Shown: positions 13,955 through 40,067, counted from the stretch's first letter. The stretch is 40,067 nt of DNA from a virus (IMGVR_UViG_2585427781_000002); one strand, 5' to 3'. The notes: generated by a model from the letters alone, not told the origin. Numbers and translations: made by a program.

Positions 13955-13965
13955 CCCACACCTCT

Positions 13966-14557: not shown

Positions 14558-14600
14558 AACTGTCTCCGCACAGCCCCGTTCAGGGGCTGATTTCAGGTAC

Positions 14601-14620: not shown

Positions 14621-14643
14621 ATCAGAGTTGTTGTCTGCGACGT

Positions 14644-16602: not shown

Positions 16603-16648
16603 CCTGAACCAGGAATTATTCTTCGGACTGGTCGTCGGTGTACTGCGG

Positions 16649-24932: not shown

Positions 24933-25151
24933 TTATATTTTTTCAGCCAAATCTCTCAAGAACTGTTTGGCATGTTTTACCGCAGTAACTTCATAATAAT
25001 CCAAACCAGCTCCTTCAAGTCGCTCAAGGTTGATGTTCAGATCAAAAATTTCACCGGCAAAACGTTCTTTGTCCTGTAACGTTAAGATTACCGTAACTTT
25101 ATTCTCAAAATTGCGGGTCCCTTTCACAATCAGTTCATAGTTTTTAGTCAT
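24933..25151 (-). CDS. hypothetical small protein between holin and endolysin
   Basis: 72-aa ORF starting 5 nt downstream of the holin stop; same strand as the lysis genes. Confidence 0.5.
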   Translation of the reverse strand: MTKNYELIVKGTRNFENKVTVILTLQDKERFAGEIFDLNINLERLEGAGLDYYEVTAVKHAKQFLRDLAEKI

Positions 25152-25155
25152 TGTC

Positions 25156-25371
25156 TTACTCTCCTCTCGCAGCCTTACGCCTGTCTTCTTTAATCTTGAA
25201 ATAAAGGTTTGTCAGATACGTCAGCATGCCAAATACCAGACTACCCAATACACCTATTGCCGCCCACTGTGAGGGTGTGACTTTATCGAGCAACTGTAAA
25301 AACCAGTAGCCAGCACTGCCTGCAGAGGTGCTGTAGGCGATGCCCGTTGTTAACTTATCCATGGATTTCAT
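25156..25371 (-). CDS. pinholin, phage-21 S type
   Basis: From ATG 25371 with GGAGGTGA RBS: [71 protein letters not shown], 71 aa, with the dual-start motif (M1..M4) and two transmembrane segments, matching S21 as remembered. Confidence 0.9.
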
Positions 25372-25561
25372 AGCCTCACCTCCGCAGATAACGGATGGTG
25401 TACACGGTTTGGTTCGAAGAAGGAAAGAAGTTACATTAGCGTAAGGCCCGAACATCTATTCAAAAAGAAAAACGCCAGCAATTATTCTGGCGTAGCTAAA
25501 AATATCGTATAATCTTACACTTCAAAAAATAACTTTATAAAATGCCATCACATCATATCTT

Positions 25562-26284
25562 CTAAGAAAATCTTGATAAATATTGGTGCGGAGGCACACC
25601 AAAATATCTTCTAAAAACACTTACAAAATATGATGCATTGTCATACCCGCATATTCCCGCCACCTTGCCGACAGTATGGTTACTGTAGATCAATAATCTT
25701 TGCGCCATCATCATTCGTTCTTCAAGAATTAATTTACTAAACGATAATCCTTCGTCTTTTAATTTTCTTTTTAACAAACTCTCGCTCATATATAATCTTG
25801 AAGATATATCACAAAGTCTCCATGACGCTGAGATATCCGAGTGAATAATAGCCTTAACTTTACAACCTAAGCTATTAAGACTTCCGAACAAAAAACTTTG
25901 CACTATTTTCTCTGAAGATAAGACAGCAAGACATGCAAGTGATATTTGATTTCTAACTACATCCACGGTTTTGCTATCACAATTCAAGCATGCAACCAAG
26001 TTCTTTAACAATGAAAAATCTTCACATTCTACTATCAAGTATGACGGATAAAACCTTCTTACAGAAAAAGGTGAGAGTGTGTAGTTTTTAAAGAAATCAT
26101 TAACTGTTTTCTCCTCAACATCTACGATCATTAGATGATCTGTATTTGACGAAAAAAGATCTTTTAAATTGTATTCAATGAGGACAGCATTTCCTTTTTT
26201 AAACAAAATATCTTCTTTACCAATTCGGACACCAAACGAGTTCAACACCAAAATGATAGAACATATGTATGGCATATTATCCAC
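25562..26284 (-). CDS. AraC/XylS-family transcriptional regulator
   Basis: 240-aa ORF with a C-terminal AraC-type helix-turn-helix (...GICGYDNASYFVSVFRRYFGVPPHQY); low-GC gene with a 400-bp AT-rich upstream region. Confidence 0.85.
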   Translation of the reverse strand: MDNMPYICSIILVLNSFGVRIGKEDILFKKGNAVLIEYNLKDLFSSNTDHLMIVDVEEKTVNDFFKNYTLSPFSVRRFYPSYLIVECEDFSLLKNLVACLNCDSKTVDVVRNQISLACLAVLSSEKIVQSFLFGSLNSLGCKVKAIIHSDISASWRLCDISSRLYMSESLLKRKLKDEGLSFSKLILEERMMMAQRLLIYSNHTVGKVAGICGYDNASYFVSVFRRYFGVPPHQYLSRFS

Positions 26285-26681
26285 CTGATATCATTGGGGT
26301 TACACCAGGTAAGTATAGGTGGAAAATCAATATTCGCCAGTTCAACAATAAGGAAAATCTCATTGCATCACAACTATAAAACCATGTGTTTAACTCACAA
26401 AAAACAAATCATTAAACTAATCTGTTATATTATAATAGCTGCGTGCAATAATAATATTATATACTCTTAATATTCACTTGAAATATCTTCATATAAAAAC
26501 AGATTGAATAAAATCGTTTGGGGCTGGTATGTTTACCAACATTAAATTGCATCTCAATGTTTTCTTTAGCGTGAACAGGATTTTTATAAAAACTGACACT
26601 ATGAGCATCATAGCGTAGTTTTTACGATTGTAAATATCCTGCATACAGGAACTCATCACTTTCAGATGATATCGCATACAG

Positions 26682-27641
26682 TTAATTCACCATCAGTCTT
26701 AGAGCCAGTTCTTCCGGATAGGGATCGAAGTAATTCTGTGTAAGCAAGTAATCATTAGGATACTCACCCAGATAATGCTTCAGCAGAGTCAACGGCGCAA
26801 GAAGAGGCAATGTGCCAAAGCGATAGTTAAGTATAACCTCGCTCAACTCTTTACGCTGGCGTGTACTTAAGTAATTACTAAAATACCCCTGTATATGCAT
26901 CAGCACATTCGTGTGATTTTTACGTGATGCTGGTTTTCTGAGAATCGCCATCAGATTATCACGATACACCTCAAAGTATGATTCAAGGTCCGCCCACTCG
27001 TGTATTGCAGCCACAAATGGTCCCATATCTTTATAGCCTGCCTGGCTATGCGCCAACAACTGAAGCTTATAACGACTATGAAAAGCTAATAACTCTCTTC
27101 TTGATAATTTCTCCTTGTAAAGGTGATTGAGCTCATGCAAAGCAAAAACTCTTTCAATAAAATTCTCACGAAGCACTGGATCATGTAATCGCCCATCCTC
27201 TTCAACCGGTAGCCAGGAAAACTTTTCCATCAAAGTGCTCGTAAATAGTCCCACTCCATCTTTACGACCTCGATTACCATTTTCATCATAGACACGCACG
27301 CGCTCCATGCCACAGCTGGGAGATTTAGCACAAACCACAAACCCCGATACATCCTTTAATTTGTCCATATAAGAACGACTAAACTCTGTCATTCTCTCTG
27401 TCACATCCTCATTCTGGTCGTGGCTGAAACACATCCGTATATTTCCTTGCTTCGAGCGCACAAGTCGTAGAGCAGGACGCGGAACTGGCAGCCCTATAGC
27501 CATTTCCGGACATACTGGTCTGAATGTTACCCATTCCACTAATTTGTCCATTAAAAAGTCATCTCTTTTGTGACCACCATCAAAACGAACAGCAGAACCG
27601 CCCAAACAACCGCTGATCCCAATCACAGGTTTTTTTATCAT
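26682..27641 (-). CDS. DUF523 (TudS-like thiouracil desulfidase family) fused to DUF1722
   Basis: 319-aa ORF; N-terminal GISGCLGG...FDGG with conserved cysteines (..RPVCPE.., ..CAKSPSCGMERV..) typical of DUF523, and a helical C-terminal half consistent with DUF1722. Confidence 0.65.
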   Translation of the reverse strand: MIKKPVIGISGCLGGSAVRFDGGHKRDDFLMDKLVEWVTFRPVCPEMAIGLPVPRPALRLVRSKQGNIRMCFSHDQNEDVTERMTEFSRSYMDKLKDVSGFVVCAKSPSCGMERVRVYDENGNRGRKDGVGLFTSTLMEKFSWLPVEEDGRLHDPVLRENFIERVFALHELNHLYKEKLSRRELLAFHSRYKLQLLAHSQAGYKDMGPFVAAIHEWADLESYFEVYRDNLMAILRKPASRKNHTNVLMHIQGYFSNYLSTRQRKELSEVILNYRFGTLPLLAPLTLLKHYLGEYPNDYLLTQNYFDPYPEELALRLMVN

Positions 27642-27833
27642 TTCCTCCCCCTTGACTAATTCATTAACACATAAACTTTGTAGTGCACGGACTAAATTGC
27701 CTTTCTGGCTTCATCACTGACAATTTTTCTGTTATTGACTATTCCTAATATAGTAGGAAAGTTCTTTAAGTGATCGGTCGTACTCATCTATCTTTCATAC
27801 TTACTCTCAACTATCAAAAGTACAGGATTTATT

Positions 27834-28358
27834 ATGAAGTTATGGCCTGTGTTGACTGGCATTGCACTCTCTTTCACTCTTATAGCATGTAAGGCCCCGA
27901 CACCACCTAAAGGTGTGCAGCCGATTACAAATTTTGACGCCAACCGCTACCTCGGAAAATGGTATGAAATAGCTCGCCTCGAGAACTGGTTCGAACGTGG
28001 TCTGGAACAGGTCAGCGCTACTTATGAAAAACGGAACGACGGAGGGATTCGCGTACTTAACCGTGGATACGATCCAACGAAAAACAAATGGAGCGAGAGC
28101 GAAGGTAAAGCATACTTTACTGGAGATACTAAAACTGCAGCGTTGAAAGTTTCGTTTTTTGGCCCCTTCTATGGTGGCTATAATGTAATCAAGCTGGATG
28201 ATGAGTATAAGTATGCTCTTGTCAGTGGTCCGAACAGAGAATACCTATGGATTCTGGCAAGGACCCAAACTATTCCAGATAATGTAAAAGCAGACTATGT
28301 GCGTACCGCTCAAAAGTTGGGATTCAATGTCAATGAACTATTATGGGTTAAACAATAA
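27834..28358 (+). CDS. blc: outer membrane lipocalin Blc
   Basis: 174-aa ORF with lipoprotein signal peptide and lipobox (LIAC), then ...NFDANRYLGKWYEIARLENWFERGLEQVSATY...KVSFFGPFYGGYNVI...YLWILART.., matching bacterial lipocalin as remembered. Confidence 0.9.
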   Translation: MKLWPVLTGIALSFTLIACKAPTPPKGVQPITNFDANRYLGKWYEIARLENWFERGLEQVSATYEKRNDGGIRVLNRGYDPTKNKWSESEGKAYFTGDTKTAALKVSFFGPFYGGYNVIKLDDEYKYALVSGPNREYLWILARTQTIPDNVKADYVRTAQKLGFNVNELLWVKQ

Positions 28359-28386
28359 AATCCCCACCCGAAATGATACTTATTAG

Positions 28387-28413
28387 AAAAAAACCAGCCT
28401 TTGGGGAGGCTGG
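28387..28413 (-). terminator. intrinsic terminator downstream of Q (tR'-like)
   Basis: Stem CCAGCCT (28394-28400) / AGGCTGG (28407-28413) with loop TTGGGG; on the minus strand the hairpin is followed by a 7-nt U-run (plus-strand A-run 28387-28393). Lies about 100 nt downstream of the Q stop. Confidence 0.6.
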
Positions 28414-28513
28414 CTAAATCAGGAAACAAGCTGTTATATGATAATAACTACGTTGCGATTCCAACATTTAAAATGTTAGACTAATGAAAATCAGACAGCA
28501 ACTTTTCCTTTAA

Positions 28514-28906
28514 TTATTTCGAACAATCAGCATCCATCTCCAATCGGAGATCCAACACCATCAGCATGCCCTCCACTACGCCCTCAGCTTTCTGGAGCAT
28601 CCTGCCAACCCAACAATCAGATCGCCCATGCTTACGTGCAAGCGCCATAAAAGTCATGCCGCCGACATAATAGTCCACCAATAAATCATGTAAATCGCTG
28701 TTGTTTTTTTTCAGGCGAGCCATACATTCACAAATGATCATCGCGTCATCGTCACAGCATTGCGGACGAGATCTTACTTTTGAAGGAATTAATCCCTTAA
28801 AACCGGCGGCAATGGACGACCAGGTCACATCTTCATGATTATTAGCCGCCCATGCCCCCCAACGCTCAAGAACCATCTGAATATCACGCATCAACTTACT
28901 CCACAA
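28514..28906 (-). CDS. late-gene antiterminator Q (phage 21 / QuuD-like)
   Basis: ...[73 protein letters not shown]... closely resembles Q21-type antiterminators as remembered; the start may be the internal Met (MRDIQ). Confidence 0.85.
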
Positions 28907-28908
28907 AA

Positions 28909-29958
28909 TTAGGCCAGCACACCAATTGCCAGCGCGCGATCGATAAATCGAAAAATCAGCTCCAGTTGGGAGCCATACTTCTCTTCAAATGCCACGGTAT
29001 CCGTATGCAACTCGTCGTGATGCTTTCTGCACAAAGGCAACACAAAGAGATCATGTGCTTTGGTTCCCATTCCGCCCTGCCCGTGACCAATTAGATGATG
29101 CGGATCGTCGGCTGGCATACCGCAGCAAGCACACGGCTGTGTCTTAACCCAGCGTGTGTATTTCTCCTTAACCCAACGGTGACGTTTAGGCAGCTTCATG
29201 AAAGATTCCGGAGACTCTGGATCAACGGTGATGCTTACCACCGTCTTTTCCTGTGATGGGTTTTGTTGCTGGTGGGCGTGAGGCAACGGTGCAAGATTTT
29301 TTGTGCGCTGTTTCAATATGCTGGTGGCGGTCTGCTCTCCCGGTACGATGTCGCTTTCGCGGTACACCGAGCAGTTTTTTTCCGCTGGTAATCCCAGCGA
29401 GCGACGTAATACCACTTCCGGTAGCGCGTCCGCCACCTGATTGCGGACCGCCCACCAGGATAATTCAGCCAGAGATAATTCACGCTCCTGCGTACCGCTT
29501 ATTGCGTGACCGATGACGTCAATCATCCATGCTGACAGGTTTTGATGAGCAAGTTGCTCGAGTGATTCGGATGTCTGGTCACGCAGCTGGTTGTCGCAGT
29601 GCCAGCACAACACCATTGCGCCGGTACCATAACGGTGAATAACGGTTTCGCTGTGATGATAATCGCCGTGTGGCCACTGGCAGGATTTAATATGGCGCAA
29701 CAGCCAGTCAGACAATGCACCAGCACCACCAGCAGCACGAATTACCCGTGCGTTACTGAAAAACGGCAGCAATGTTTTGTCTTCCACCAGCGGCTGGCGA
29801 ACGGCAGGAACGACCCCGGACGGCAGATTACGCATGCTTTTCGGTTCCGGCTCCACCAGTACCCGGGTATTGTGGAATACCGGCATGGATTCACGGCCCG
29901 GCTTAACGACCACCAGCCCGAGTTCCGGTACCAGAACAGGTCGAAGTAATACCCGCAC
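28909..29958 (-). CDS. DUF968-family phage protein (YdfU-like)
   Basis: 349-aa ORF with C-terminal Cys/His-rich motif ([18 protein letters not shown]...CRKHHDELH); translationally coupled to neighbours on both sides. Confidence 0.6.
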
Positions 29959-29959
29959 G

Positions 29960-30238
29960 TTACCTCCAGATGCGTTGCTGGAATGTACGGGACGGACGCG
30001 GTGGGCGTTCGGAGTAAGGCAATCTGACTGAGATTATCCAGTGACGGTAGTCGAGACTAAGAGCTTTCTTAACCTCGTATCCGCGCCTGCGGTAACACTG
30101 AATTATCCATTCAGCCTGCTCTTCAGTGCATGGAGGGTGCTGGAACCATTCAGACTTGAATGCGTGAGAATACCGCTCGTGCGTGCAGGCAAGAACGGGC
30201 GAATTATCAGAATTGTAATATTTTACGTTGCGTGCCAT
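29960..30238 (-). CDS. hypothetical phage protein
   Basis: 92-aa ORF ending 1 nt before the DUF968 start; Cys/His-containing. Confidence 0.45.
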   Translation of the reverse strand: MARNVKYYNSDNSPVLACTHERYSHAFKSEWFQHPPCTEEQAEWIIQCYRRRGYEVKKALSLDYRHWIISVRLPYSERPPRPSRTFQQRIWR

Positions 30239-30304
30239 CGGTTTTCTCCGGTGGCACGGTGTTACTCAGCGGGAGTTCAGCCCCGCGCAAGATTGTAGAT
30301 GAGT

Positions 30305-30556
30305 TTATTCTTCTGCAAAAGCTGAAAAGCCTGCTTTTATTCCGATCTCTTTCAGTGCCTGTAATGAAGTGACAAACTCACCTTCGCGCAAGATAAATCC
30401 GTCTGTCACTCGACCATCCACAAAATTAATTAACGCAGCCCCATTCTTTCGCAAACACATAATGCGGTAATGACTAACAAGATTTCCATTTTCAACGCAC
30501 ACAGCATAGAGGCCATCTTCACAAAAAATTTTACGCAGTTCTTCGATGTTCATCAT
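30305..30556 (-). CDS. hypothetical small phage protein upstream of hok
   Basis: 83-aa ORF (MMNIEELRKIF...); same size and position as Qin rem but identity not confirmed. Confidence 0.45.
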   Translation of the reverse strand: MMNIEELRKIFCEDGLYAVCVENGNLVSHYRIMCLRKNGAALINFVDGRVTDGFILREGEFVTSLQALKEIGIKAGFSAFAEE

Positions 30557-30671
30557 CAGAATCCTTCCGGATAATTAGCTCTCCCCTTTAAGGGACCATC
30601 CCTCTTATCCCTGCGCGCTACTTAAGTATTTTTGATTCTATTCCGGCACCGTCCAGAACTTCAAACGCGTT

Positions 30672-30702
30672 GAAAATAAAAACAAAACCCCGCCGAAGCG
30701 GG
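30672..30702 (-). terminator. intrinsic terminator of the hok transcript
   Basis: Stem CCCGC (30689-30693) / GCGGG (30698-30702) with loop CGAA, followed on the minus strand by a U-rich run (plus-strand A-rich 30672-30688). Confidence 0.5.
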
Positions 30703-30772
30703 TTAAGTGCGGGTGCGTTGAGGATGCCTGCCACATCAGAGGTGGCGAGGGATTTCTCCCTCGCCGGGTCTC

Positions 30773-30928
30773 TTACTCCTCAGGTTCGTAAGCTGTGAAG
30801 ACAGCGACCTCCGTCTGGCCGGTTCGGATTCGTACCTCGCAGAGGTCTTTCCTCGTTACCAGTGCCGTCACTATGACGGTTAAACAGATGACGATCAGGG
30901 CGATTAACATCGCCTTTTGCTGCTTCAT
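30773..30928 (-). CDS. hokD: Hok/Gef-family type I toxin
   Basis: From ATG 30928 with AAGGAG RBS: MKQQKAMLIALIVICLTVIVTALVTRKDLCEVRIRTGQTEVAVFTAYEPEE, 51 aa, single transmembrane helix plus the conserved Cys; an in-frame upstream extension (mok-like) is present in the track ORF. Confidence 0.9.
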   Translation of the reverse strand: MKQQKAMLIALIVICLTVIVTALVTRKDLCEVRIRTGQTEVAVFTAYEPEE

Positions 30929-31185
30929 AGCCTGCTTCTCCTTGCCTTTCGGCACGTAAGAGGCTAACCTACATGTGTCTAGCATGAAATTGGCCTCAGA
31001 TTAATGTTAAGCGTCTTGCAGGACGCGTAATGTTAACTGGGGCTTTTCTCTACCTGCCGTTGGTGTTCGTGCCCGAGGCAGATAGCCTCAAGCACCCGCA
31101 GTCATTCTACTTAACTAAGATTTCCCCGCAAACCGTTTTGTCCAGCACAGTAAATATCCAACTAAACCAATGGAGTTCGCTGTAT

Positions 31186-31365
31186 TTACCGCCAGTATTC
31201 AATGCACATGACCGCCATGAACACCCCTAAAAAAAGGGCATTTATATATCCAAATATTAATATCAAAACATCAACTTTTTCCATATACCTTGCTGTGAAG
31301 ATGATGGGCATACATGATGCGAACAACCAGAACGCAACAAACAAAAACTGCAATGCGTTTTTCAT
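31186..31365 (-). CDS. hypothetical small membrane protein (two predicted transmembrane helices)
   Basis: 59-aa ORF from ATG 31365 preceded by a G-rich RBS-like sequence; strongly hydrophobic (ALQFLFVAFWLFA... / LILIFGYINALFLGVFMAV); AT-rich codon usage. Confidence 0.4.
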   Translation of the reverse strand: MKNALQFLFVAFWLFASCMPIIFTARYMEKVDVLILIFGYINALFLGVFMAVMCIEYWR

Positions 31366-31847
31366 TATTCCCCCTACAATCAATGTGCAATAACATTTAA
31401 ACACACCTCAATTTAGCCGGACATATAAATATCTAAACCAGAAAAAATCACTTACATAGCGTTACAAACTCTTTAGTCTAAATATTCATCGTAAAACATT
31501 CCCCATACTTATCAGCCCGTTCTGCGCCAGGTAGCTCATTGCCTTATCTGGGAACCTGTAATCAGGTTTCCGGATGCTGGTGGATTTTCGCGTTTTAGTT
31601 GTTCATAAAAGTGCACAGCTTTAACCAGTTCTTCTGATGTAACCGGGACTGGCGGGGCAGTGAATAAGGCCTGAATTTCATAGTTCGGCCTATCGTTACA
31701 ATCCTCTTTTTTCGGTACATATTTCCAGTCACCAGACCACTACTTCCCCTGAAAGTCCGTAACGCCTTTTTTTCACGTAGCGATATCGCCATGCCTTTTT
31801 TTTTGCTTCCCCCGCCGTTTCATGCCCTTCCTGATAATTAACCTCGC

Positions 31848-32024
31848 TCATTCATCGCCCCACTCATCACAATATGCTTCGACCGGAGTTTTTCCTGCTT
31901 CATAATCATCACGCCATGCTTCAGCATCAGCAGCACTGCCACCACGTAACTCTGCATAGTCCATTAACAGTTCATGCCATTCTTCAAAACCGACGTTGTA
32001 TTTAGTTGAACCAAAATCAGCCAT
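31848..32024 (-). CDS. hypothetical small acidic protein (58 aa)
   Basis: ORF below the track threshold, found by hand translation: MADFGSTKYNVGFEEWHELLMDYAELRGGSAADAEAWRDDYEAGKTPVEAYCDEWGDE, with GAGGAAG RBS-like sequence upstream. Confidence 0.35.
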   Translation of the reverse strand: MADFGSTKYNVGFEEWHELLMDYAELRGGSAADAEAWRDDYEAGKTPVEAYCDEWGDE

Positions 32025-32061
32025 TTTGTTCTTCCTCTTCGTCTTTTATTTCGTGATATGA

Positions 32062-32199
32062 TTAATTGCAGTAGTTAAAGAAAATATCTTTTGCTTCGTC
32101 ATGTATTTCATCAGGCGTCGCATCATTATCCACTTCGAATTCATCCTCGAAATCTCCACCGGCTATTCCCGTTTCAATAATTATTTTAAACTTTCGCAT
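32062..32199 (-). CDS. hypothetical small acidic protein (45 aa)
   Basis: Hand-translated ORF MRKFKIIIETGIAGGDFEDEFEVDNDATPDEIHDEAKDIFFNYCN; in tandem with the 58-aa ORF; an upstream hairpin (CCGCCC-GAAA-GGGCGG) lies between an AGGAGG and the ATG. Confidence 0.3.
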   Translation of the reverse strand: MRKFKIIIETGIAGGDFEDEFEVDNDATPDEIHDEAKDIFFNYCN

Positions 32200-32706
32200 T
32201 TAACTACCGCCCTTTCGGGCGGCCTCCTGATGTTCTGAGGGTGCAGAAATCCCTCCGGTTAAGGATTAAATTTTTAACAGTGCTAAATTTAATTATTCAG
32301 TTCTGGATTTTGTCACCCTGCGTATCCGCGCTTTCCCGTTACGCTCAATCTGAATTAGCTTTTCTATATTTTTTCGTCTTTCCCGTTCCTCCTGGCGCAA
32401 GAGCCTTACATCATCTGCCAGTCTGGTTTCTCTTTTCGCCACAGAGAGCATCCAGTCAAATGGCTCCACAACTGCACCTCAGATTTTACAGCGGACCTGA
32501 CGCTCTTTTTCGTCAACCCGGACAGAAGCGTGATGGCAATATGGTCTTTCCGATGGCTCATAAAGAAAATTAACCTGATTACGAGGGTCATCCTCTTTTA
32601 TCGGAAATAAAACGATATTGCTTAACTAATCCTCTGGTTTTATTTCCATGCTCCTCTCCTTTGATGCTAATGCCAGCGGTAATTGAAGCCTGATAGCTAA
32701 TTTCAC

Positions 32707-33129
32707 TCACAGTACCGCCTCCTGAAAATTACCCTGATAGAAAGCCAGTACACGCTGCATAGCTTCACTCTTCCGGCACTCGCGACAGATTATGTTTAGA
32801 CGACTGTCGTAGCGACGTATTTCTCCATCAGGTAGTGACCAGATAAGGTCCGGATCAACCACAGCGGGTTTCTTCACCTTCGCCCTAGAGAGTTTTTTGC
32901 GGGCATTTTGCCAGTCCTTTCGTGCCTGTTCAGACGGGAATAACCCGTAGCCGGAGTTGTATACATAACCACTGGCAACCAGCTCTCTGGCAAGAATGCT
33001 CATCAGATATCTTGTCGCACCTGTTTTAGCTTCCAACTGTCGTAATGTCTCGCGACCGCTCTGGCGCACAAGTTCGACCACCTGCTCTTTAATTTTTTCC
33101 CGCTCTTCCTGTGTAAAAACTTTTGCCAC
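32707..33129 (-). CDS. hypothetical phage protein (replication-module position)
   Basis: 140-aa ORF; its first ~42 codons overlap the last codons of the O-like ORF in another frame. Confidence 0.5.
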   Translation of the reverse strand: MAKVFTQEEREKIKEQVVELVRQSGRETLRQLEAKTGATRYLMSILARELVASGYVYNSGYGLFPSEQARKDWQNARKKLSRAKVKKPAVVDPDLIWSLPDGEIRRYDSRLNIICRECRKSEAMQRVLAFYQGNFQEAVL

Positions 33130-33878
33130 AAGTCCTCCTTAAAGGCAGCCTGTTCGTAAAGGTTCACGATCCGCCCCCAAATCCACTGCGCACACGCCAA
33201 ATCCTCCCTGCTACCCCACTGGCGTTTTTTCGCACTAAACACAACCGCGTCGGGGTTCCGGATTAAAAAATCCTGTTCAGCGGTCTGCAGGTCCGGTTGC
33301 GAAGCTTCCGGACGAAAAGTGTTTTTATTCTCTGTAGTAATCTCTGTTGTATTCTCTGTAAGATCATCAGGCCATTTTGACCCGATGACATTGGGTCGTT
33401 TTGAACCAATGGAGCGTTTCATTTTGACCTCTTCCATCGTGTCATTTTGACCTGATGGAGCGGCGCATTTTGAACCGATGGATTCGTTCAATTTGCCACC
33501 ATCTAAAAGCTCGCTCCCATAGTTGATCGTGTAGAAATTGGTCATATCGCGCTTTGATTTATTGAGCTTTTCACAACGCAAAAGCCCCAGCGTTTTCAGA
33601 CTTGCAAACGCGCGCTTTAACGTTGACTCTGACCAGAATGGGAACTGTTCCAGCCATTGTTCCGTTGTGTTGTAAATCCAGCGAACACCATCACATTCCA
33701 TGCCGGAATTGGTATCTCTCAACCAGTAATGCAACTGCTGCAACACAATGGCTTCATTTAAGCCAATCTTCATCGCAAGCTGTGTGTTTATAACCAGTGG
33801 GCGTTCAGCAAAAAGAAGGCTCATAATTCCATCCAGCTTTTTGTTGGTATTGCTGTCGATACGCAAGTTTGAAAGCAA
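33003..33878 (-). CDS. replication initiator, lambda O-like (replisome organizer N-terminal domain)
   Basis: N-terminal ..LNEAIVLQQLHYWLRDTN...RWIYNTTEQWLEQFPFWSESTLKRAFASLKTLGLL.. resembles phage replisome-organizer domains; the central SIGSK repeats are encoded by the iteron array inside the gene. The start may be an internal Met. Confidence 0.7.
   Translation of the reverse strand: MLSNLRIDSNTNKKLDGIMSLLFAERPLVINTQLAMKIGLNEAIVLQQLHYWLRDTNSGMECDGVRWIYNTTEQWLEQFPFWSESTLKRAFASLKTLGLLRCEKLNKSKRDMTNFYTINYGSELLDGGKLNESIGSKCAAPSGQNDTMEEVKMKRSIGSKRPNVIGSKWPDDLTENTTEITTENKNTFRPEASQPDLQTAEQDFLIRNPDAVVFSAKKRQWGSREDLACAQWIWGRIVNLYEQAAFKEDLWQKFLHRKSGKKLKSRWSNLCARAVARHYDSWKLKQVRQDI
33373..33500. repeat. 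iteron array (candidate origin of replication) inside the O-like gene
   Basis: Six direct repeats of CATTTTGA(A/C)C(N)GATGG-like units at about 23-bp spacing (starts near 33373, 33397, 33420, 33443, 33466, 33489), the last one degenerate. Confidence 0.65.
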
Positions 33879-34326
33879 TTGCTTTTTCTATAAGTTCGTC
33901 AGTTTCACGATCCACTACGGCAGGATCAGCAAAAAGCAGTCCGGACTCCACCACATCGCCATATTCTTTGTTTAACCCGGCGATCATGTACGTGATGCTT
34001 TTTCCGTCACTAATTTCACGATACAACCTGAAATCATTAATCCGGATAGCCTCCATAATTGCAGGCACTAGCGCCGTGAACTTTTCACGCTTATCCCTGG
34101 TGTCGATAGCCTTCCAGCGTTCGAATATCTTCACTCGATTAACGCCAAGCGCTCGCTGATCAACCGCGCCACCTTCATCTGTGACACGCTGAACATCGAT
34201 GTTCGGGCGCTCTTTCAAAGCCCAGAATGCTTCAGTGATTAATATCGTCGCCTGCTCCTGTGTCATTCCTGGTCGACATATCCAGGCATCCAGAGCCTCA
34301 CGAGCCTGTTCAGGAGTGATTTTCAT
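33805..34326 (-). CDS. hypothetical early-region protein (CII-position)
   Basis: 173-aa ORF between the Cro-like gene and the O-like gene; no confident family assignment. Confidence 0.45.
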   Translation of the reverse strand: MKITPEQAREALDAWICRPGMTQEQATILITEAFWALKERPNIDVQRVTDEGGAVDQRALGVNRVKIFERWKAIDTRDKREKFTALVPAIMEAIRINDFRLYREISDGKSITYMIAGLNKEYGDVVESGLLFADPAVVDRETDELIEKAIAFKLAYRQQYQQKAGWNYEPSFC

Positions 34327-34537
34327 TGTTCAACCGCCCCGCCCGCTTCGTCTTACGATATTCGTCATAAACCTTGGGATCATACAGAAGCTCCCCGCCA
34401 GATGCCTCCTGTAGACGCATCGCGCGACCTTCAGGAACCAGCTCTTGCCATTGAGAAACAGCAGATGGGTCAACGCCAGCAGCTTTCGCTACTTTGGCTT
34501 TCGTACCGTAAAAATTAATTACGTCTGATTTAAACAT
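34310..34537 (-). CDS. dicC: Cro-like repressor, DicC-like
   Basis: From ATG 34537 with GGAGGT RBS: MFKSDVINFYGTKAKVAKAAGVDPSAVSQWQELVPEGRAMRLQEASGGELLYDPKVY..., 75 aa, divergent from the dicA-like gene. Confidence 0.7.
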   Translation of the reverse strand: MFKSDVINFYGTKAKVAKAAGVDPSAVSQWQELVPEGRAMRLQEASGGELLYDPKVYDEYRKTKRAGRLNNENHS

Positions 34538-34614
34538 CGCACCTCCAATATTGAGTTTTCTCAATGCTAATCACTCAAGGAATCTCAAGTCAAGGGTTAT
34601 TAAGATATCTAAAT
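34538..34614. promoter_or_regulatory. divergent promoter/operator region between the dicC-like and dicA-like genes
   Basis: 77-bp intergenic region with palindrome TTGAG-TTTT-CTCAA (34551-34564) and repeated CTCAAG(G/T) units, consistent with repressor operators. Confidence 0.4.
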
Positions 34615-35022
34615 ATGAACGAGAAAACTTTAGGTCAACGCATTAGAGAAAGACGTAAGCAGGTAGGCTTAAGTCAAAACGGTTTAAGCAAAGCTGCTGG
34701 CGTATCTGGCTCATCAATTTCATTATGGGAAAGTGACCATACAGCCCCGCGTGGGCAAAATTTGCATCGCCTCGCCGAGGTATTGCAATGTTCACCAACC
34801 TGGATACTGTTTGGCGACGAGGACAAAACACCAGCTCCCCCTGTTTCACTCGATAGTGCCTTAGACTTATCGGAAGATGAGTTAGAGATGCTGCGTTTGT
34901 ATCGCGCACTTCCTAAATCAGAGCAACAAGCACAACTCAGCGAACTCCGCGCCCGCGTTGAGAATTTTAATCGCCTGTTCACCGAGCTATTAGAGGCTCG
35001 CAAACGCAACAAGCATCAATAA
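34615..35022 (+). CDS. dicA: CI-like repressor DicA (HTH XRE family)
   Basis: From ATG 34615: MNEKTLGQRIRERRKQVGLSQNGLSKAAGVSGSSISLWESDHTAPRGQNLHRLAEVLQCSPTWILFGDEDK..., 135 aa, closely resembling DicA as remembered. Confidence 0.9.
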   Translation: MNEKTLGQRIRERRKQVGLSQNGLSKAAGVSGSSISLWESDHTAPRGQNLHRLAEVLQCSPTWILFGDEDKTPAPPVSLDSALDLSEDELEMLRLYRALPKSEQQAQLSELRARVENFNRLFTELLEARKRNKHQ

Positions 35023-35214
35023 TCATCCCTTCACAAAATTTTAAAGCCTTACATTTCAATGTATTGGCTTTATCTTGCGCCAATACTTGAGTTTTCTCAT
35101 CAAAAAACCTTGACGAAAAATAATGAGAAAACTAAATTACCTCCATCAACACACCGCACGGTGTTCTCAGCAAACAGTTCCGCTACCCCGGCGTTAAGGG
35201 GAAATGAGGTCAGC

Positions 35215-35367
35215 ATGGATACTATCGATCTTGGCAACAGCGAATCTCTGGTATGTGGCGTGTTCCCCAACCAGGACGGTACGTTCACCGCGATGACATA
35301 TACCAAAAGCAAAACGTTTAAAACCGAATCTGGCGCGCGTTGCTGGTTAGCCAGAAACACTGACTGA
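35215..35367 (+). CDS. ydfA: YdfA-like small protein, first gene of the dicB operon
   Basis: From ATG 35215 with GAGGT RBS: MDTIDLGNSESLVCGVFPNQDGTFTAMTYTKSKTFKTESGARCWLARNTD, 50 aa. Confidence 0.7.
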   Translation: MDTIDLGNSESLVCGVFPNQDGTFTAMTYTKSKTFKTESGARCWLARNTD

Positions 35368-35744
35368 TGAGGCTGACGATGGAATTTAAAGATTTACCGT
35401 CTGATGTACAGAAAACAGCAGCTCATACATTGCATTCTGTGCTGCGAGAAATCGGGAAAGATATTGCAAGCGAGCCAGCAAAAGATCTGGCCCGGAAAAT
35501 CAAGACCGCTTTCGTTGAGCTTTATAATGTTGGCACTGACTCTGAAACTGTCGAGACCAAGACCGTAAGTTCACCAATATTCTCACTTGAGCCAGGCGTA
35601 TTAGCAGGTGAAATATGCACCGAGATTTCCAGCGAACTGCTTCCGGTAATACGAGAAGCAATTTGCCGTCGCGGTTTGGATGGAAGTTACGATCATGACG
35701 TCCTGCAAGTTCTCAGGACAATGGTGACTTCACTGGGGATTTGA
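35367..35744 (+). CDS. hypothetical protein of the dicB operon (YdfB/YdfC position)
   Basis: 125-aa ORF whose ATG overlaps the ydfA stop (TGATG). Confidence 0.55.
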   Translation: MRLTMEFKDLPSDVQKTAAHTLHSVLREIGKDIASEPAKDLARKIKTAFVELYNVGTDSETVETKTVSSPIFSLEPGVLAGEICTEISSELLPVIREAICRRGLDGSYDHDVLQVLRTMVTSLGI

Positions 35745-35913
35745 TCCCTGCGTCCTCTAACCTTTTGATATAGCGGTCCTCCAAGAAGCGGTAAATTTTG
35801 TCGAAATCATCTTTCCCCTCTGGTTTATTCAGAGGATTACAGGACCCGTAAGTAGCGGCATACATTTCAACCGTTTTATCAAAAATATAAGAGACAAATT
35901 CTTCTTTAGTCAT
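35713..35913 (-). CDS. hypothetical small protein antisense to the dicB operon
   Basis: 66-aa ORF from ATG 35913 with AAGGAA RBS-like sequence: MTKEEFVSYIFDKTVEMYAATYGSCNPLNKPEGKDDFDKIYRFLEDRYIKRLEDAGIKSPVKSPLS. Confidence 0.4.
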   Translation of the reverse strand: MTKEEFVSYIFDKTVEMYAATYGSCNPLNKPEGKDDFDKIYRFLEDRYIKRLEDAGIKSPVKSPLS

Positions 35914-36187
35914 ATAGATTTCCTTCTTGGTTATTCGGAATAAGAAGGATACCACCTCGCCTGACGTGGTTAAAAGCAGGCACACAACACGAAAGCGCAC
36001 GGCGAAGTTCGTCTCACTGTACGGTGTCGTTAAATTTAATTCGACCGTGCGCTTCCGGTTGTGGCAACCCGCGAAATGGCGCGGCGGTAAGTATGGCGGG
36101 GGTATTCCTTCCCCGTTGAGGACACCGAGTTGTCAGGTTGACCATACGCTTAAGTGACAACCCCGCTGCAACGCCCTCTGTTATCAA

Positions 36188-36246
36188 TTTTCTGGTGACG
36201 TTTGGCGGTATCAGTTTTACTCCGTGACTGCTCTGCCGCCGTTTTT
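36188..36246 (+). ncRNA. dicF: DicF small regulatory RNA
   Basis: TTTCTGGTGACGTTTGGCGGTATCAGTTTTACTCCGTGACTGCTCTGCCGCCGTTTTT matches the DicF sRNA as remembered, including the terminal hairpin plus T-run; located between the ydfB/C-position gene and dicB. Confidence 0.8.
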
Positions 36247-36415
36247 AAAGTGAATTTTGTGATGCGGTGAATGCGGCTAAGCGCACGCGGAACAGTTAAA
36301 ACCAAAAACAGTGTTATGGGTGGATTCTCTGTATCCGGCGTTAATTGTTAACTGGTTAACGTCACCTGGAGGCACCAGGCACTGCATCACAAAATTCATT
36401 GTTGAGGACGCGATA

Positions 36416-36604
36416 ATGAAAACGTTATTACCAAACGTTAATACGTCTGAAGGTTGTTTTGAAATTGGTGTCACTATCAGTAACCCTGTATTTACTGAAG
36501 ATGCCATTAACAAGAGAAAACAAGAACGGGAGCTATTAAATAAAATATGCATTGTTTCAATGCTGGCTCGTTTACGTCTGATGCCAAAAGGATGTGCACA
36601 ATGA
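36416..36604 (+). CDS. dicB: cell division inhibitor DicB
   Basis: From ATG 36416 with GAGGA RBS: MKTLLPNVNTSEGCFEIGVTISNPVFTEDAINKRKQERELLNKICIVSMLARLRLMPKGCAQ, 62 aa. Confidence 0.9.
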   Translation: MKTLLPNVNTSEGCFEIGVTISNPVFTEDAINKRKQERELLNKICIVSMLARLRLMPKGCAQ

Positions 36605-36792
36605 ATTCAGCATTTGCGCTTGTTCTGACAGTTTTTCTTGTTTCCGGAGAGCCAGTTGATATTGCAGTCAGTGTTCACAGGACAATGCAGGAGTGTATGA
36701 CTGCAGCAACCGAACAGAAAATTCCCGGTAACTGTTACCCGGTCGATAAAGTTATTCACCAGGATAATATCGAAATCCCGGCAGGTCTTTAA
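36601..36792 (+). CDS. ydfD: YdfD-like small membrane protein
   Basis: ATG overlaps the dicB stop (ATGA); MNSAFALVLTVFLVSGEPVDIAVSVHRTMQECMTAATEQKIPGNCYPVDKVIHQDNIEIPAGL, 63 aa. Confidence 0.8.
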   Translation: MNSAFALVLTVFLVSGEPVDIAVSVHRTMQECMTAATEQKIPGNCYPVDKVIHQDNIEIPAGL

Positions 36793-36885
36793 AACAGTTC
36801 CGTAATAAATATCCGGTTTCATTCTTATATGCCAGCAATGGCAGGGATTTGTTCATCCTTAAATCTGTCATGAGGTTAAAACAAA

Positions 36886-39357
36886 ATGAGTAAAGTCTTT
36901 ATTTGCGCCGCTATTCCTGACGAACTGGCAACAAGGGAAGAAGGCGCTGTGGCTGTAGCCACAGCCATTGAAGCTGGCGACGAACGCCGTGCTCGAGCAA
37001 AATTTCACTGGCAGTTCCTGGAACATTATCCGGCTGCTCAGGACTGCGCTTATAAATTTATTGTCTGCGAGGATAAACCTGGCATACCCCGCCCTGCCCT
37101 CGATTCATGGGATGCTGAATATATGCAGGAAAACCGCTGGGATGAGGAGTCTGCTTCTTTTGTCCCGGTTGAGACTGAATCCGATCCGATGAACGTCACT
37201 TTTGACAAGCTGGCCCCTGAAGTACAGAACGCTGTCATGGTTAAGTTCGACACATGTGAAAACATCACCGTTGATATGGTTATTAGCGCACAGGAATTGT
37301 TGCAGGAAGACATGGCAACATTCGACGGACATATCGTTGAAGCGTTGATGAAAATGCCAGAAGTTAACGCCATGTATCCGGAGCTTAAGTTGCACGCCAT
37401 TGGGTGGGTTAAGCATAAATGTATTCCTGGTGCTAAATGGCCCGAAATTCAGGCAGAGATGCGCATCTGGAAAAAACGTCGCGAAGGTGAACGCAAGGAA
37501 ACCGGAAAATACACGTCTGTTGTTGATCTCGCCCGCGCCAGAGCCAATCAACAGTACACTGAAAATTCAACAGGAAAAATCAGCCCGGTCATTGCTGCCA
37601 TTCATCGCGAATACAAGCAGACATGGAAAACACTGGATGACGAACTGGCCTACGCTCTCTGGCCTGGTGATGTGGATGCCGGAAACATTGACGGCAGCAT
37701 CCATCGCTGGGCAAAAAAAGAAGTTATCGACAACGACCGCGAAGACTGGAAGCGTATCTCGGCATCAATGCGCAAACAGCCTGATGCCCTTCGCTACGAC
37801 CGCCAGACTATTTTTGGCCTTGTCCGTGAGCGTCCGATCGACATTCACAAAGATCCCATAGCACTGAACAAATATATCTGCGAATACCTGACGACAAAGG
37901 GCGTGTTTGAGAATGAAGAAACAGACCTGGGCACTGTTGATGTTCTCCAGTCATCAGAAACACAAACTGATGCAGTGGAAACTGAGGTATCTGATATCCC
38001 AAAAAATGAAACCGCGCCGGAAGCTGAACCATCTGTAGAGCGTGAGGGGCCGTTCTATTTCCTCTTCGCAGATAAGGACGGAGAAAAATACGGTCGCGCA
38101 AACAAACTTTCTGGTCTGGATAAGGCACTGGCTGCTGGCGCCACTGAAATCACAAAAGAAGAATATTTTGCCCGAAAAAATGGCACATACACGGGCTTAC
38201 CGCAAAATGTAGATACCGCTGAAGATTCAGAACAACCAGAGCCGATAAAAGTTACCGCTGACGAAGTAAACAAAATTATGCAGGCAGCCAATATCAGCCA
38301 GCCTGACGCCGATAAGTTGCTTGCTGCATCACGTGGTGAATTTGTTGAAGGGATTAGTGACCCGAATGATCCGAAATGGGTTAAGGGGATCCAGACCCGC
38401 GATTCTGTGAACCAGAACCAGCATAAATCGGAACGGAACTACCAAAAAGCGGAACAAAACAGCACAAATGCGTTACAAAACGAGCCAGAAACGAAACAGC
38501 CTGAACCAGTGGCGCAACAGGAAGTGGAAAAAGTCTGCACCGCCTGCGGTCAGACCGGCGGCGGCAACTGCCCTGATTGTGGCGCGGTGATGGGCGACGC
38601 AACATATCAAGAAACATTCGATGAAGAATATCAGGTTGAAGTTCAGGAAGATGATCCGGAGGAAATGGAAGGCGCTGAACATCCACACAAGGAGAACACT
38701 GGCGGCAATCAGCATCACAATAGCGATAATGAAACTGGCGAGACGGCAGATCACTCAATTAAGGTGAACGGTCATCACGAAATCACATCCACCAGCAGGA
38801 CGTGTGACCATCTAATGATCGACCTTGAAACCATGGGAAAAAATCCTGATGCCCCGATCATCTCAATAGGTGCAATATTTTTCGATCCGCAAACCGGAGA
38901 TATGGGACCGGAATTTAGTAAGACTATCGATCTGGAAACTGCTGGCGGAGTCATTGATCGGAACACCATTAAATGGTGGCTTAAGCAATCACGCGAAGCG
39001 CAATCTGCCATTATGACCGATGAAATCCCGTTAGATGATGCACTGTTACAATTGCGGGAATTTATCGACGAAAACTCCGGTGAATTTTTTGTTCAGGTTT
39101 GGGGAAATGGAGCCAACTTCGACAACACGATTTTGCGCCGTTCATACGAACGGCAGGGGATCCCCTGCCCGTGGCGTTACTACAACGATCGCGATGTACG
39201 CACAATCGTTGAGCTGGGGAAAGCCATAGACTTCGATGCCAGAACGGCTATTCCATTCGAAGGTGAGCGCCATAATGCACTTGATGACGCCCGTTACCAG
39301 GCAAAATACGTTTCAGTTATCTGGCAAAAACTGATCCCGAGTCAGGCTGATTCTTAA
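36886..39357 (+). CDS. large early-region protein with a C-terminal DnaQ-like (DEDDh) 3'-5' exonuclease domain
   Basis: 823-aa ORF with GAGGT RBS; C-terminal ~200 aa carry exonuclease motifs (MIDLETMG..., ..GNGANFDNTIL.., ..HNALDDARYQA..); a central CxxC...CPDC zinc ribbon; N-terminal ~550 aa acidic and of unknown function. Confidence 0.6.
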   Translation: MSKVFICAAIPDELATREEGAVAVATAIEAGDERRARAKFHWQFLEHYPAAQDCAYKFIVCEDKPGIPRPALDSWDAEYMQENRWDEESASFVPVETESDPMNVTFDKLAPEVQNAVMVKFDTCENITVDMVISAQELLQEDMATFDGHIVEALMKMPEVNAMYPELKLHAIGWVKHKCIPGAKWPEIQAEMRIWKKRREGERKETGKYTSVVDLARARANQQYTENSTGKISPVIAAIHREYKQTWKTLDDELAYALWPGDVDAGNIDGSIHRWAKKEVIDNDREDWKRISASMRKQPDALRYDRQTIFGLVRERPIDIHKDPIALNKYICEYLTTKGVFENEETDLGTVDVLQSSETQTDAVETEVSDIPKNETAPEAEPSVEREGPFYFLFADKDGEKYGRANKLSGLDKALAAGATEITKEEYFARKNGTYTGLPQNVDTAEDSEQPEPIKVTADEVNKIMQAANISQPDADKLLAASRGEFVEGISDPNDPKWVKGIQTRDSVNQNQHKSERNYQKAEQNSTNALQNEPETKQPEPVAQQEVEKVCTACGQTGGGNCPDCGAVMGDATYQETFDEEYQVEVQEDDPEEMEGAEHPHKENTGGNQHHNSDNETGETADHSIKVNGHHEITSTSRTCDHLMIDLETMGKNPDAPIISIGAIFFDPQTGDMGPEFSKTIDLETAGGVIDRNTIKWWLKQSREAQSAIMTDEIPLDDALLQLREFIDENSGEFFVQVWGNGANFDNTILRRSYERQGIPCPWRYYNDRDVRTIVELGKAIDFDARTAIPFEGERHNALDDARYQAKYVSVIWQKLIPSQADS

Positions 39358-39429
39358 TGTTCAACTGTCGCCGGTTGTGACTGGTATTCTGCAACCGGCG
39401 CTCGTCTGATGTAAGAGATAAAGAAATCG

Positions 39430-39681
39430 ATGAGCGAAGTAATCATGATTGTCTCTCCCGGCAAATGGGTATCCGAAGAGCAGTTAATTGCGCTGAAAGG
39501 AATAAAAAAAGGTACGTTAAAAAAGGCCCGGGAAAAATCGTTTATGGAAGGAAGGGAATATAAGCATGTCGCTCATGACGGTATGCCATGGGATAACAGT
39601 CCATGCTTTTACAACCTGGAAGAAATTGATCGCTGGATTGAGCGCCAGGCATCAGCGAGACCAAGACGTCATCTTACTTGA
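39430..39681 (+). CDS. putative excisionase
   Basis: 83-aa ORF immediately upstream of the integrase start on the same strand; basic C-terminus. Confidence 0.55.
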   Translation: MSEVIMIVSPGKWVSEEQLIALKGIKKGTLKKAREKSFMEGREYKHVAHDGMPWDNSPCFYNLEEIDRWIERQASARPRRHLT

Positions 39682-39715
39682 CTAAAAGCCACACTAACTA
39701 ATGAGAGAAGTTGAA

Positions 39716-39828
39716 ATGAAATATCCGACAGGCGTGGAAAACCATGGAGGGAAATTACGTATCTGGTTTGTTTATAAAGGCGTAAGAGTCAGGGAAAATC
39801 TGGGGGTTCCTGACACAGCAAAAAACAG
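39716..39828 (+). pseudogene. integrase gene 5' fragment, truncated by IS1
   Basis: ATG 39716 gives MKYPTGVENHGGKLRIWFVYKGVRVRENLGVPDTAKNR, typical of lambdoid tyrosine-integrase N-termini as remembered; the frame is cut at 39829 by the IS1 terminal inverted repeat. Confidence 0.75.
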
Positions 39829-40067
39829 GGTAATGACTCCAACTTATTGATAGTGTTTTATGTTCAGATAATGCCCGATGACTTTGTCATGCAGCTCCAC
39901 CGATTTTGAGAACGACAGCGACTTCCGTCCCAGCCGTGCCAGGTGCTGCCTCAGATTCAGGTTATGCCGCTCAATTCGCTGCGTATATCGCTTGCTGATT
40001 ACGTGCAGCTTTCCCTTCAGGCGGGATTCATACAGCGGCCAGCCATCCGTCATCCATATCACCACGT
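39829..40067 (-). mobile_element. IS1 insertion sequence (partial, runs off the right edge)
   Basis: Begins with the terminal inverted repeat GGTAATGACTCCAACTTATTGATAGTG, followed by the reverse complement of the insB 3' end. Confidence 0.9.
39844..40065 (-). CDS. insB: IS1 transposase InsB, C-terminal part
   Basis: Track ORF ...[69 protein letters not shown] matches the InsB C-terminus as remembered. Confidence 0.9.

Follow-up and report, generated by a model that had tools for sequence, protein, structure and literature searches.

The stretch analysed here, IMGVR_UViG_2585427781_000002, is 40,067 nucleotides (nt) of DNA from a virus and is referred to below as the window. Positions are counted along the whole window, and the focus is on 35215-36792. 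This region is probably the repressor-controlled early-left (dicBF) operon of a Qin-family lambdoid prophage, mosaic in its make-up, with a reverse gene of 66 amino acids (aa) in the position that sieB holds in lambdoid phages. The dicBF operon itself is a known system, present here as a common variant, and is ordinary. What is new is that the 66-aa open reading frame (ORF) is recognised as a real gene, belonging to one of the at least 23 families that occupy a sequence-tagged sieB slot, and that a conserved element lies between the operon promoter and dicF.

The gene order is that of the dicBF operon in the Qin prophage of Escherichia coli K-12, where ydfA-ydfB-ydfC-dicF-dicB-ydfD are controlled by DicA and DicC. 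In the window a repressor gene of the DicA family is followed on one strand by a promoter with operators, ydfA, dicF, dicB and ydfD, as annotated in K-12, and the initial annotation of a dicB-type operon is upheld by this order and by the repressor upstream. The promoter, operator repeats, ydfA, DicF precursor stem, DicF, dicB and ydfD are all intact. The first gene, ydfA (35215-35367, + strand; 50 aa, DUF1391), matches Pfam PF07151 with 94 bits, and its product is identical to K-12 YdfA at 43 of 50 residues. The next gene of the leftward operon after ydfD encodes an 823-aa exonuclease (36886-39357, + strand; Pfam Rv2179c-like, 225.7 bits), as annotated by PGAP at the near-identical LR-45 and CP53 loci, where excisionase and integrase genes come after it. 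With the repressor and operators upstream and the exonuclease, excisionase and integrase downstream, the operon is recognizable as the early-left operon of a lambdoid prophage; the label of pL equivalent that it had been given fits this synteny.

A covariance-model search confirmed the DicF small RNA (sRNA) at 36190-36246 on the + strand. The match to Rfam RF00039 scored 72.5 bits against a gathering score of 48, covered positions 1-52 of 52 and had an E value of 3e-14. DicF itself spans 36190-36241 and is followed by T5, in agreement with the terminator hairpin that had been claimed for it. The sequence is identical to K-12 DicF except at 36241, the last base (G for C), which is unpaired in the Rfam consensus structure; the target-pairing sequence is unchanged, and no divergence at the seed was seen. 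The dicB gene (36416-36604, + strand; 62 aa) matches Pfam PF05358 over positions 1-62 of 62 with 136.8 bits, and its product is identical to K-12 DicB at all 62 residues. DicB acts through MinC and ZipA. The last gene of the cassette, ydfD (36601-36792, + strand; 63 aa, DUF1482), matches Pfam PF07358 end to end with 92 bits and is 62/63 identical to K-12 YdfD at the protein level. Its ATG and the TGA of dicB share the sequence ATGA, so that the predicted overlap of the ydfD start with the dicB stop is real.

At the DNA level the stretch from ∼35972 to 37652 is 98% identical to K-12, and the leader and ydfA are ∼93% identical to those of K-12 Qin. The conserved part includes a long predicted stem in the DicF precursor with a 12-nt inverted repeat at its base (arms 35992-36003 and 36045-36056, + strand), which appears in the predicted folds of both the window and K-12 and whose flanks are conserved as well. 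An RNase III cut ∼137 nt upstream of mature DicF gives rise to a 190-nt DicF species (bioRxiv 10.1101/2023.04.14.536235). As judged by its position and predicted fold, the stem at 35992-36056 is probably the RNase III site for this species.

From 35367 to ∼35970 no alignment to K-12 was possible. The ydfB and ydfC genes, which K-12 carries between ydfA and dicF, are replaced in the window by a forward gene of 121 aa and a converging gene of 66 aa. We read this stretch as a two-gene mosaic module with overlapping 3′ ends that stands in place of ydfB-ydfC. PGAP already annotates both genes as hypothetical proteins, and every ORF of the operon has already been called. The initial annotation had likewise placed ydfA, the 121/125-aa gene, DicF, dicB, ydfD and the 66-aa ORF at the coordinates given here or within a few bases of them.

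The forward gene (35379-35744, + strand; PGAP WP_023281935.1; phrog_33007 in PHROGs) would encode 125 aa if read from the start of its ORF at 35367. A start at the ATG at 35379 is likelier, as this codon has GAGG 8 nt upstream, is the choice of PGAP and is the start of most homologues. Homologues with 74-99% identity are found in Escherichia, Salmonella, Enterobacter and Hafnia. The N-terminal ∼55 residues recur in other phage proteins, while the C-terminal half co-occurs with the 66-aa gene. The protein had no match in Pfam or NCBIfam, no family in PADLOC-DB 2.0 at E values up to 0.1 and no toxin or antitoxin domain, and phrog_33007 carries no function label in PHROGs. The AlphaFold2 (AF2) model is poor, with four helices and a predicted local distance difference test (pLDDT) score of 60. 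An antiterminator of the lambda N type was considered for this gene and rejected: the protein is acidic (19 Asp/Glu against 13 Lys/Arg), has no arginine-rich N terminus and is predicted to form four helices.

The 66-aa gene (35713-35913, − strand; WP_000159335.1, phrog_34441) had been described as a small ORF lying antisense inside the operon, with its own ribosome-binding-like sequence. The ORF and its coordinates stand, as does the ribosome-binding sequence, AAGGA at 8 nt ahead of the ATG. The ORF is not nested, however: it shares just its last 32 nt with the 121/125-aa gene, the greater part falling in the untranslated stretch between that gene and dicF. This makes it a converging gene, and it is better described as an independent accessory gene.

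Length alone does not mark this ORF as coding. These 5 kb contain 60 ORFs of 30 aa or more, so that frames of 66 aa are to be expected by chance and a length of 66 aa is not significant. The case for a gene is made by conservation and by the ratio of nonsynonymous to synonymous substitution rates (dN/dS). Over the 55 codons outside the overlap with the partner gene, dN/dS in frame is 0.07-0.26, whereas most comparisons in the two shifted frames give ∼0.9-1.8 (range 0.27-3.45). In seven homologous genes whose products share 54-98% identity, the length stays at 65-66 aa and the N-terminal motif, MTxEEFVxY(I/V)FDK, does not vary. These observations argue that the 66-aa ORF is a real protein-coding gene. 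The opposite view, that it is a chance antisense frame conserved only on account of the DicF precursor RNA or of signals in the DNA, could also point to the lack of a known domain and of any publication specific to the 66-aa or 121-aa accessions in the literature searched. It is extremely improbable and already largely refuted. The synonymous excess is strong and confined to the reading frame; length and motif are kept down to 54% identity even at loci that have no dicF; the Shine-Dalgarno (SD) sequence and ATG are retained throughout; the AF2 model of the protein is confident; and K-12 makes DicF normally yet does so without this stretch.

That model has a mean pLDDT of 82.8 and shows a two-helix hairpin formed by residues 3-22 and 31-54. 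A fold search with it returned generic helical hairpins only. By sequence the protein had no match in Pfam, NCBIfam, PADLOC-DB 2.0 (E up to 0.1) or the PDB, and phrog_34441 has no function label in PHROGs. The protein is hydrophilic, without a transmembrane segment; it has no toxin-antitoxin domain and does not have the characteristics of a type I or type II toxin-antitoxin system. It also fails the SieB profile (Pfam PF14163), with which the SieB proteins of P22 and lambda score 101-104 bits in the same library.

The gene is found well beyond the dicBF operon. Five comparison loci (L005, L009, L010, L011 and L012) show it in the same convergent layout, with a gene of 121-140 aa that it overlaps by 32 or 56 nt. 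L012 is a 995-bp contig without further context; at the other four the partner lies directly downstream of the prophage repressor, and none of these four has dicF or dicB. In a Cedecea prophage (L003/L004, 3564-3764) the 66-aa gene stands alone between cro and a cII-like gene, opposing the rightward operon. It is thus autonomous and always oriented against an early operon, the dicBF operon being one of several contexts.

This distribution bears on whether the 66-aa and 121-aa genes are coupled in function, the one perhaps encoding an exclusion or toxic factor made in the lysogen and the other an antidote expressed early to protect the phage's own lytic growth, following the logic of SieB/Esc or of self-immune defence systems. 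The pair travels together with overlapping 3′ ends in the window and in the five loci L005 and L009-L012 over 54-98% identity, other genes in this position likewise have specific converging partners, and it is the C-terminal half of the partner that co-occurs with the 66-aa gene, whereas its N-terminal ∼55 aa are shared with other proteins. We nevertheless think coupling unlikely. The Cedecea prophage has the 66-aa gene without a partner; overlapping 3′ ends by themselves could maintain the linkage through recombination with no functional tie required; the converging gene in lambda and P22 is simply the antiterminator N or gene 24; and neither protein matches a toxin-antitoxin or PADLOC model.

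Upstream of the 66-aa gene lie two elements that connect it to other lambdoid phages. A near-invariant core of 34 nt (35950-35983; minus strand GTGCCTGCTTTTAACCACGTCAGGCGAGGTGGTA) heads a variable slot, and a covarying hairpin (35921-35949; arms TCCTTCTT and AAGAAGGA) follows it, the 3′ arm on the minus strand being the SD sequence of the 66-aa gene. In all, ∼75 nt upstream of the 66-aa ATG are common to otherwise unrelated loci. The core, GCCTG..CTTTTMACCACNTCAGGCNNGGTGGT, with the adjacent hairpin ahead of the following gene (hereafter the cargo) occurs in the window (35921-35983), in lambda and in P22. In lambda (NC_001416) the leftward antiterminator gene N (35438..35037) converges on the rightward sieB (34482..35036), and the core lies upstream of sieB at 34395-34431. 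In P22 (NC_002371, ∼29651-29708), where the converging gene is gene 24, the order is core, hairpin (TCTCG..CGAGA), annotated sieB promoter, mapped sieB RNA start and sieB ATG. The window, lambda, P22, phage SfV and the loci L005, L009, L010 and L011 all have a gene that runs in reverse within the early-left operon and converges on an early gene upstream. Because lambda, P22 and SfV have the same opposed orientation and the same core and hairpin, we assign the 66-aa gene to the sieB slot of lambdoid phages, a positional class rather than a protein family.

The slot is widely used. The core was found in at least 240 IMG/VR stretches, at least 120 with a leader pattern taken from upstream of the 66-aa ATG and at least 120 more with a core-only pattern that excluded the window-type continuation. 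With the first pattern alone the following ORFs fall into ∼10 unrelated families. When 256 sampled cores were pooled, 229 had a called cargo ORF, and these formed 23 families by BLASTP single linkage. Representatives of 20 of the 22 families other than that of the 66-aa gene were scanned with Pfam: only two SieB types passed threshold, two others gave weak sub-threshold matches and the rest none. Among the 23 sampled families a function is known only for SieB. The leaders are of two types. In the long type the order is core, hairpin, TATAAT-like −10, a direct repeat of the hairpin loop and 3′ arm, SD sequence and ATG, and SieB of P22 and lambda is one among its many cargos. The window has the short type.

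The likeness of the window to the sieB/esc/sas region of P22 and to sieB of lambda thus consists in a gene placed in reverse inside the early-left operon, converging on an early gene and preceded by the 34-nt core and hairpin. The proteins are unrelated, SieB being a membrane protein of ∼190 aa (PF14163) and the window protein a predicted soluble helical hairpin of 66 aa. In contrast to P22, the short leader of the window lacks the stretch that holds the mapped promoter and RNA start, and the 66-aa gene has no internal start of the esc kind. In P22 the prophage expresses sieB (PMC10883804), and a cis-antisense RNA, sas, acts as a switch on sieB translation (PMC12197685, PMC7067206); sas is 105 nt long (PMC12197685). 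By analogy, the 66-aa gene may be expressed in the lysogen and countered by an antisense RNA during the phage's own growth.

The short leader recurs in SfV (L007), together with the core and a reverse ORF of 81 aa that is directed against orf33, which comes first among the early-left genes after cI. This ORF is unannotated (L007 2261-2506, − strand), converges on orf33 and overlaps it by 83 nt. SfV differs from the window in its cargo and partner families, in having no dicF or dicB, and in that the stretch found after dicF in the window comes directly after the core. The SfV record also labels the hairpin (2494-2526) as a putative rho-independent terminator. We rejected an intrinsic terminator for this hairpin: there is no U-tract on either strand, and a terminator scan was blank at this place.

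Fixed sites with varied, independently oriented small genes beside a conserved flank are known as morons and accessory hotspots (HK97 gp15; the P2 and P4 hotspots, PMC9122126). The slot described here differs in that its marker is a 34-nt core with a covarying hairpin inside the lambdoid early-left operon, and in that its cargos are mostly single ORFs of 41-195 aa that are nearly blank in Pfam (20 families scanned). A slot-wide pattern or hotspot of this kind was not described in the literature searched, which did not cover the original sieB and sas papers, so that parts of it may be known.

Two of the comparison loci carry altered forms of the core. The Cedecea copy of the 66-aa gene has only a degenerate version of it. 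K-12 differs from the window in having just a degenerate remnant of the core downstream of ydfC; in the gap between ydfC and dicF (L002, ∼3140-3180) the 3′ arm of the hairpin and the core can be traced (AAAGGATA..TGAAAAG..CAGAC), and there is no reverse gene. The slot in K-12 Qin thus seems to have been occupied formerly and to have decayed or been replaced later.

The hairpin is preserved by compensatory change. Among 61 unique helices there are 44 distinct 5′ arms, with 412 Watson-Crick pairs. G·U pairs that form in one strand sense only occur at 54 positions in the sense of the leftward transcript (+ strand of the window) and at 23 in the cargo sense, and the minimum free energy is lower in the leftward sense for 42 of 49 hairpin variants. 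In P22 the mapped sieB RNA start is downstream of the hairpin, which places the hairpin outside the sieB mRNA there. Because of the G·U bias, the folding energies and the P22 start, the hairpin most likely forms in the RNA of the leftward transcript, which in the window is the + strand RNA that also carries DicF ∼240 nt downstream. The core behaves differently. A core pseudoknot in the leftward sense (S1 ACCAC:GUGGU, S2 GCCUG:CAGGC, with an A-rich loop 3) was considered and rejected, as no compensatory changes were seen. Three scans for an altered CAGGC arm yielded only 15 stretches, with single, mostly transition changes, none of them compensated in the unconstrained arm. Rfam had no family on the core at the gathering threshold or at E values up to 10. 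The core is conserved as sequence. It may serve the cargo promoter as a regulator or UP-type site, or mark an end or processing point of a sas-like antisense RNA; alternatively it could be a termination-related signal or a short homology patch for cargo exchange.

On the widest reading, the core and hairpin would be a widely conserved lambdoid signal that marks a hypervariable slot for exclusion genes with at least 23 cargos, of which sieB alone is characterised. They would act in the leftward transcript, as a processing handle or structured end belonging to a cis-antisense RNA that silences whatever cargo is present once the early operon of the phage is switched on, and the 66-aa protein would be a new anti-phage or host-modulating factor. 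The signal would then be a generic self-immunity switch of which the sas RNA of P22 is one instance, and in this prophage one transcript would both silence the 66-aa gene and yield DicF and DicB. We put this forward tentatively, as a rather doubtful proposal.

The same two elements might instead be the 66-aa gene's own signals, the core a promoter or regulator site and the hairpin a translational control that sequesters the SD sequence, with neither acting in the leftward transcript. Conservation of the core as sequence without compensatory change is what one would expect of a DNA site, and in P22 the core lies at −76 to −42 relative to the mapped sieB RNA start, where activator sites or UP elements are typically located. 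The SD sequence of short leaders coincides with the 3′ arm of the hairpin, the ATG being only 8 nt further on, and several variants have wobble pairs that form in the cargo mRNA only, where the stem would sequester the SD sequence. Where the core meets the hairpin, TGgTATCCT can be read as an extended −10. Against this, the hairpin of P22 is conserved and covarying even though it lies outside the sieB mRNA, the leftward sense is favoured by the wobble positions and folding energies given above, and if the extended −10 were the promoter, the 5′ arm of the hairpin would not be transcribed in the cargo sense. That the elements serve only the 66-aa gene is possible, though not probable. No conserved candidate across flank types was found for a σ70 promoter upstream of the core, and such a promoter for the 66-aa gene was rejected.

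Several points weigh against the picture of a sieB-like gene opposed by the leftward transcript of a Qin-type operon. The strand preference of the hairpin is drawn from related sequences and is not a formal test, and some wobble pairs of the short leaders, as noted, favour the cargo mRNA. The short leader is too small to hold the promoter mapped in P22, and the sole promoter candidate, the extended −10, is weak and absent from some short leaders. Expression of the 66-aa gene in the lysogen is inferred from the sieB analogy. The role of its product is argued from position alone, as it has no similarity to SieB or to defence, toxin or regulator families. With only 56% identity of the repressor to K-12 DicA, control by the Rem antirepressor or by stress as in K-12 is not assured, and the different upstream genes together with the converging gene could alter the transcription that reaches dicF and dicB.

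Subject to these points, the most likely role of the 66-aa protein is exclusion of other phages or modulation of the host. On the sieB analogy, the gene would be an accessory gene of the moron type that is transcribed independently while the operon is repressed, and firing of the operon would silence it through converging transcription and antisense pairing. For the operon itself, the course of events in K-12 suggests that inactivation of the DicA-family repressor would allow the polycistronic RNA to be made, from which RNase III and RNase E would release DicF. DicF would pair with ftsZ and other mRNAs, and DicB would redirect MinC to the division site and inhibit ManYZ and FhuA-dependent phage entry, so that cells would filament and change in phage sensitivity. 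The division block and altered phage entry expected on derepression are a sound inference from the K-12 work (PMC5069750, PMC6832061, bioRxiv 10.1101/2023.04.14.536235), because DicF and DicB are in effect identical to the molecules studied experimentally there.

The operon might also be a silent relic, intact but barely expressed, in which the converging gene and the element in the leftward transcript stop transcription from reaching dicF and dicB. The K-12 operon is tightly repressed and no full-length transcript through dicB has been detected (bioRxiv 10.1101/2023.04.14.536235), and the window version adds the converging gene and the conserved structured element between promoter and dicF. 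We judge this very unlikely. No intrinsic terminator is predicted on the + strand between 35744 and 36190, and dicB, ydfD and DicF are 99-100% identical to K-12 across hundreds of genomes. A sequenced phage has the same layout, with exonuclease, excisionase and integrase downstream in the same orientation and apparently in the same operon.

The regulatory genes resemble those of K-12 in arrangement and differ in sequence. The DicA-family repressor (34615-35022, + strand; 135 aa) is identified by NCBIfam NF007257, “transcriptional repressor DicA”, with 239.4 bits against a cut-off of 101, and by Pfam HTH_3. Only 76 of its 135 residues (56%) are identical to K-12 DicA, and for this reason its specificity is probably different. 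The divergent DicC/Cro-like regulator (34310-34537, − strand; 75 aa) matches Pfam P22_Cro with 59.3 bits and is identical to K-12 DicC at 54 of 75 positions, the C-terminal half being identical. A pattern search for operators found a 13-nt repeat, TTGAGTTTTCTCA, once between the dicC-like and dicA-like genes (34551-34563, + strand) and, as exact copies, twice around the −35 and −10 of the operon promoter (35087-35099 and 35124-35136), so that the window repressor has its own operator repeat. This promoter, the dicBp equivalent (35087-35138, + strand), has a −35 of TTGACG and a −10 of TAAATT at 35110-35138, with 9 of 12 matches in a promoter scan. The promoter and operator stretch has diverged from K-12, and near-identity to the K-12 leader starts just downstream, at ∼35144. 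Rem is an antirepressor reported to relieve DicA repression in K-12; an 83-aa ORF in the window (30305-30556, − strand) is annotated as Rem by PGAP in the near-identical LR-45 locus.

The untranslated stretch between dicF and dicB (36253-36393, + strand) resembles Rfam STnc100, although the score of 34.5 bits (E = 9.5e-6) is below the gathering score of 47. Sub-threshold matches occur at the equivalent place in SfV (L007, 2594-2809), L010 (3697-3908, − strand) and K-12 (L002, 3433-3642). All these matches score 34-41 bits against 47, and they always lie just past the core (or dicF), in the leftward sense and before the next early gene.

The window variant of the operon is common. Of 5426 complete E. 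coli genomes, 389 (∼7%) contain at least 80% of window 35000-36900, and 4759 contain parts of it. The layout is shared, at 99.5% identity, by the sequenced phage mEp460_ev081. In strain LR-45 the Qin locus, between ydfJ and rspB, holds a near-identical sequence (99.6-99.9% identity to window 25042-39829). The likeness to K-12 Qin takes in this chromosomal locus in LR-45, both operon ends, DicF bar its last base, DicB, the precursor stem and the DicA-family repressor arrangement. The window differs from K-12 Qin in that its exonuclease, xis and int genes are still intact and a complete complement of structural genes is present, and this Qin-family prophage is far more complete than that of K-12 and may be inducible. 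The structural genes form a lambda-like morphogenesis set on the − strand (2605-20432) with large terminase, portal, ClpP-capsid fusion, tape measure and J. Relative to LR-45, ∼312 bp are missing at 33143/33144 inside an O-like replication gene, the blocks 25042-33143 and 33144-39829 mapping 312 bp apart; this gap could affect replication competence.

Other features of the window and of the comparison loci lie outside the operon discussed above. The Rfam cspA thermoregulator matches at 22835-23251 (− strand) with 109.8 bits against a gathering score of 78, marking a cold-shock gene leader as in Qin (cspB/cspI type). At 30773-31097 (− strand) there is a type I toxin-antitoxin locus, hok/sok, with sok RNA at 30923-31097 (107.8 bits) and a HokD-like ORF at 30773-30985. 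Between the Q antiterminator and the lysis genes, 25565-28358 holds an AraC-type regulator, a DUF523/DUF1722 gene (2-thiouracil desulfurase-like) and a blc-like lipocalin ORF; these genes are not phage-like in appearance and are present in LR-45 too. A tRNA gene lies inside the early-left operon of L005 (4257-4329, − strand), and isrK and C4-antisense-RNA matches were found in the rightward early region of L010 (6625-6813, + strand).

An intact DicF/DicB cassette, essentially identical to that of K-12, is thus carried by a structurally complete Qin-family prophage. For dicBF regulation outside K-12 this means that the interval from promoter to dicF contains, in many strains, a converging gene as well as a conserved structured element. 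For the lambdoid phages as a family, the sieB position of lambda and P22 is a general, sequence-tagged slot for many unrelated and uncharacterised small genes, and the 34-nt core is usable as a direct query to harvest candidate exclusion or host-modulating genes from lambdoid prophages. The arrangement also offers a testable idea of how the genes in this slot may be switched off during the phage's own lytic growth.

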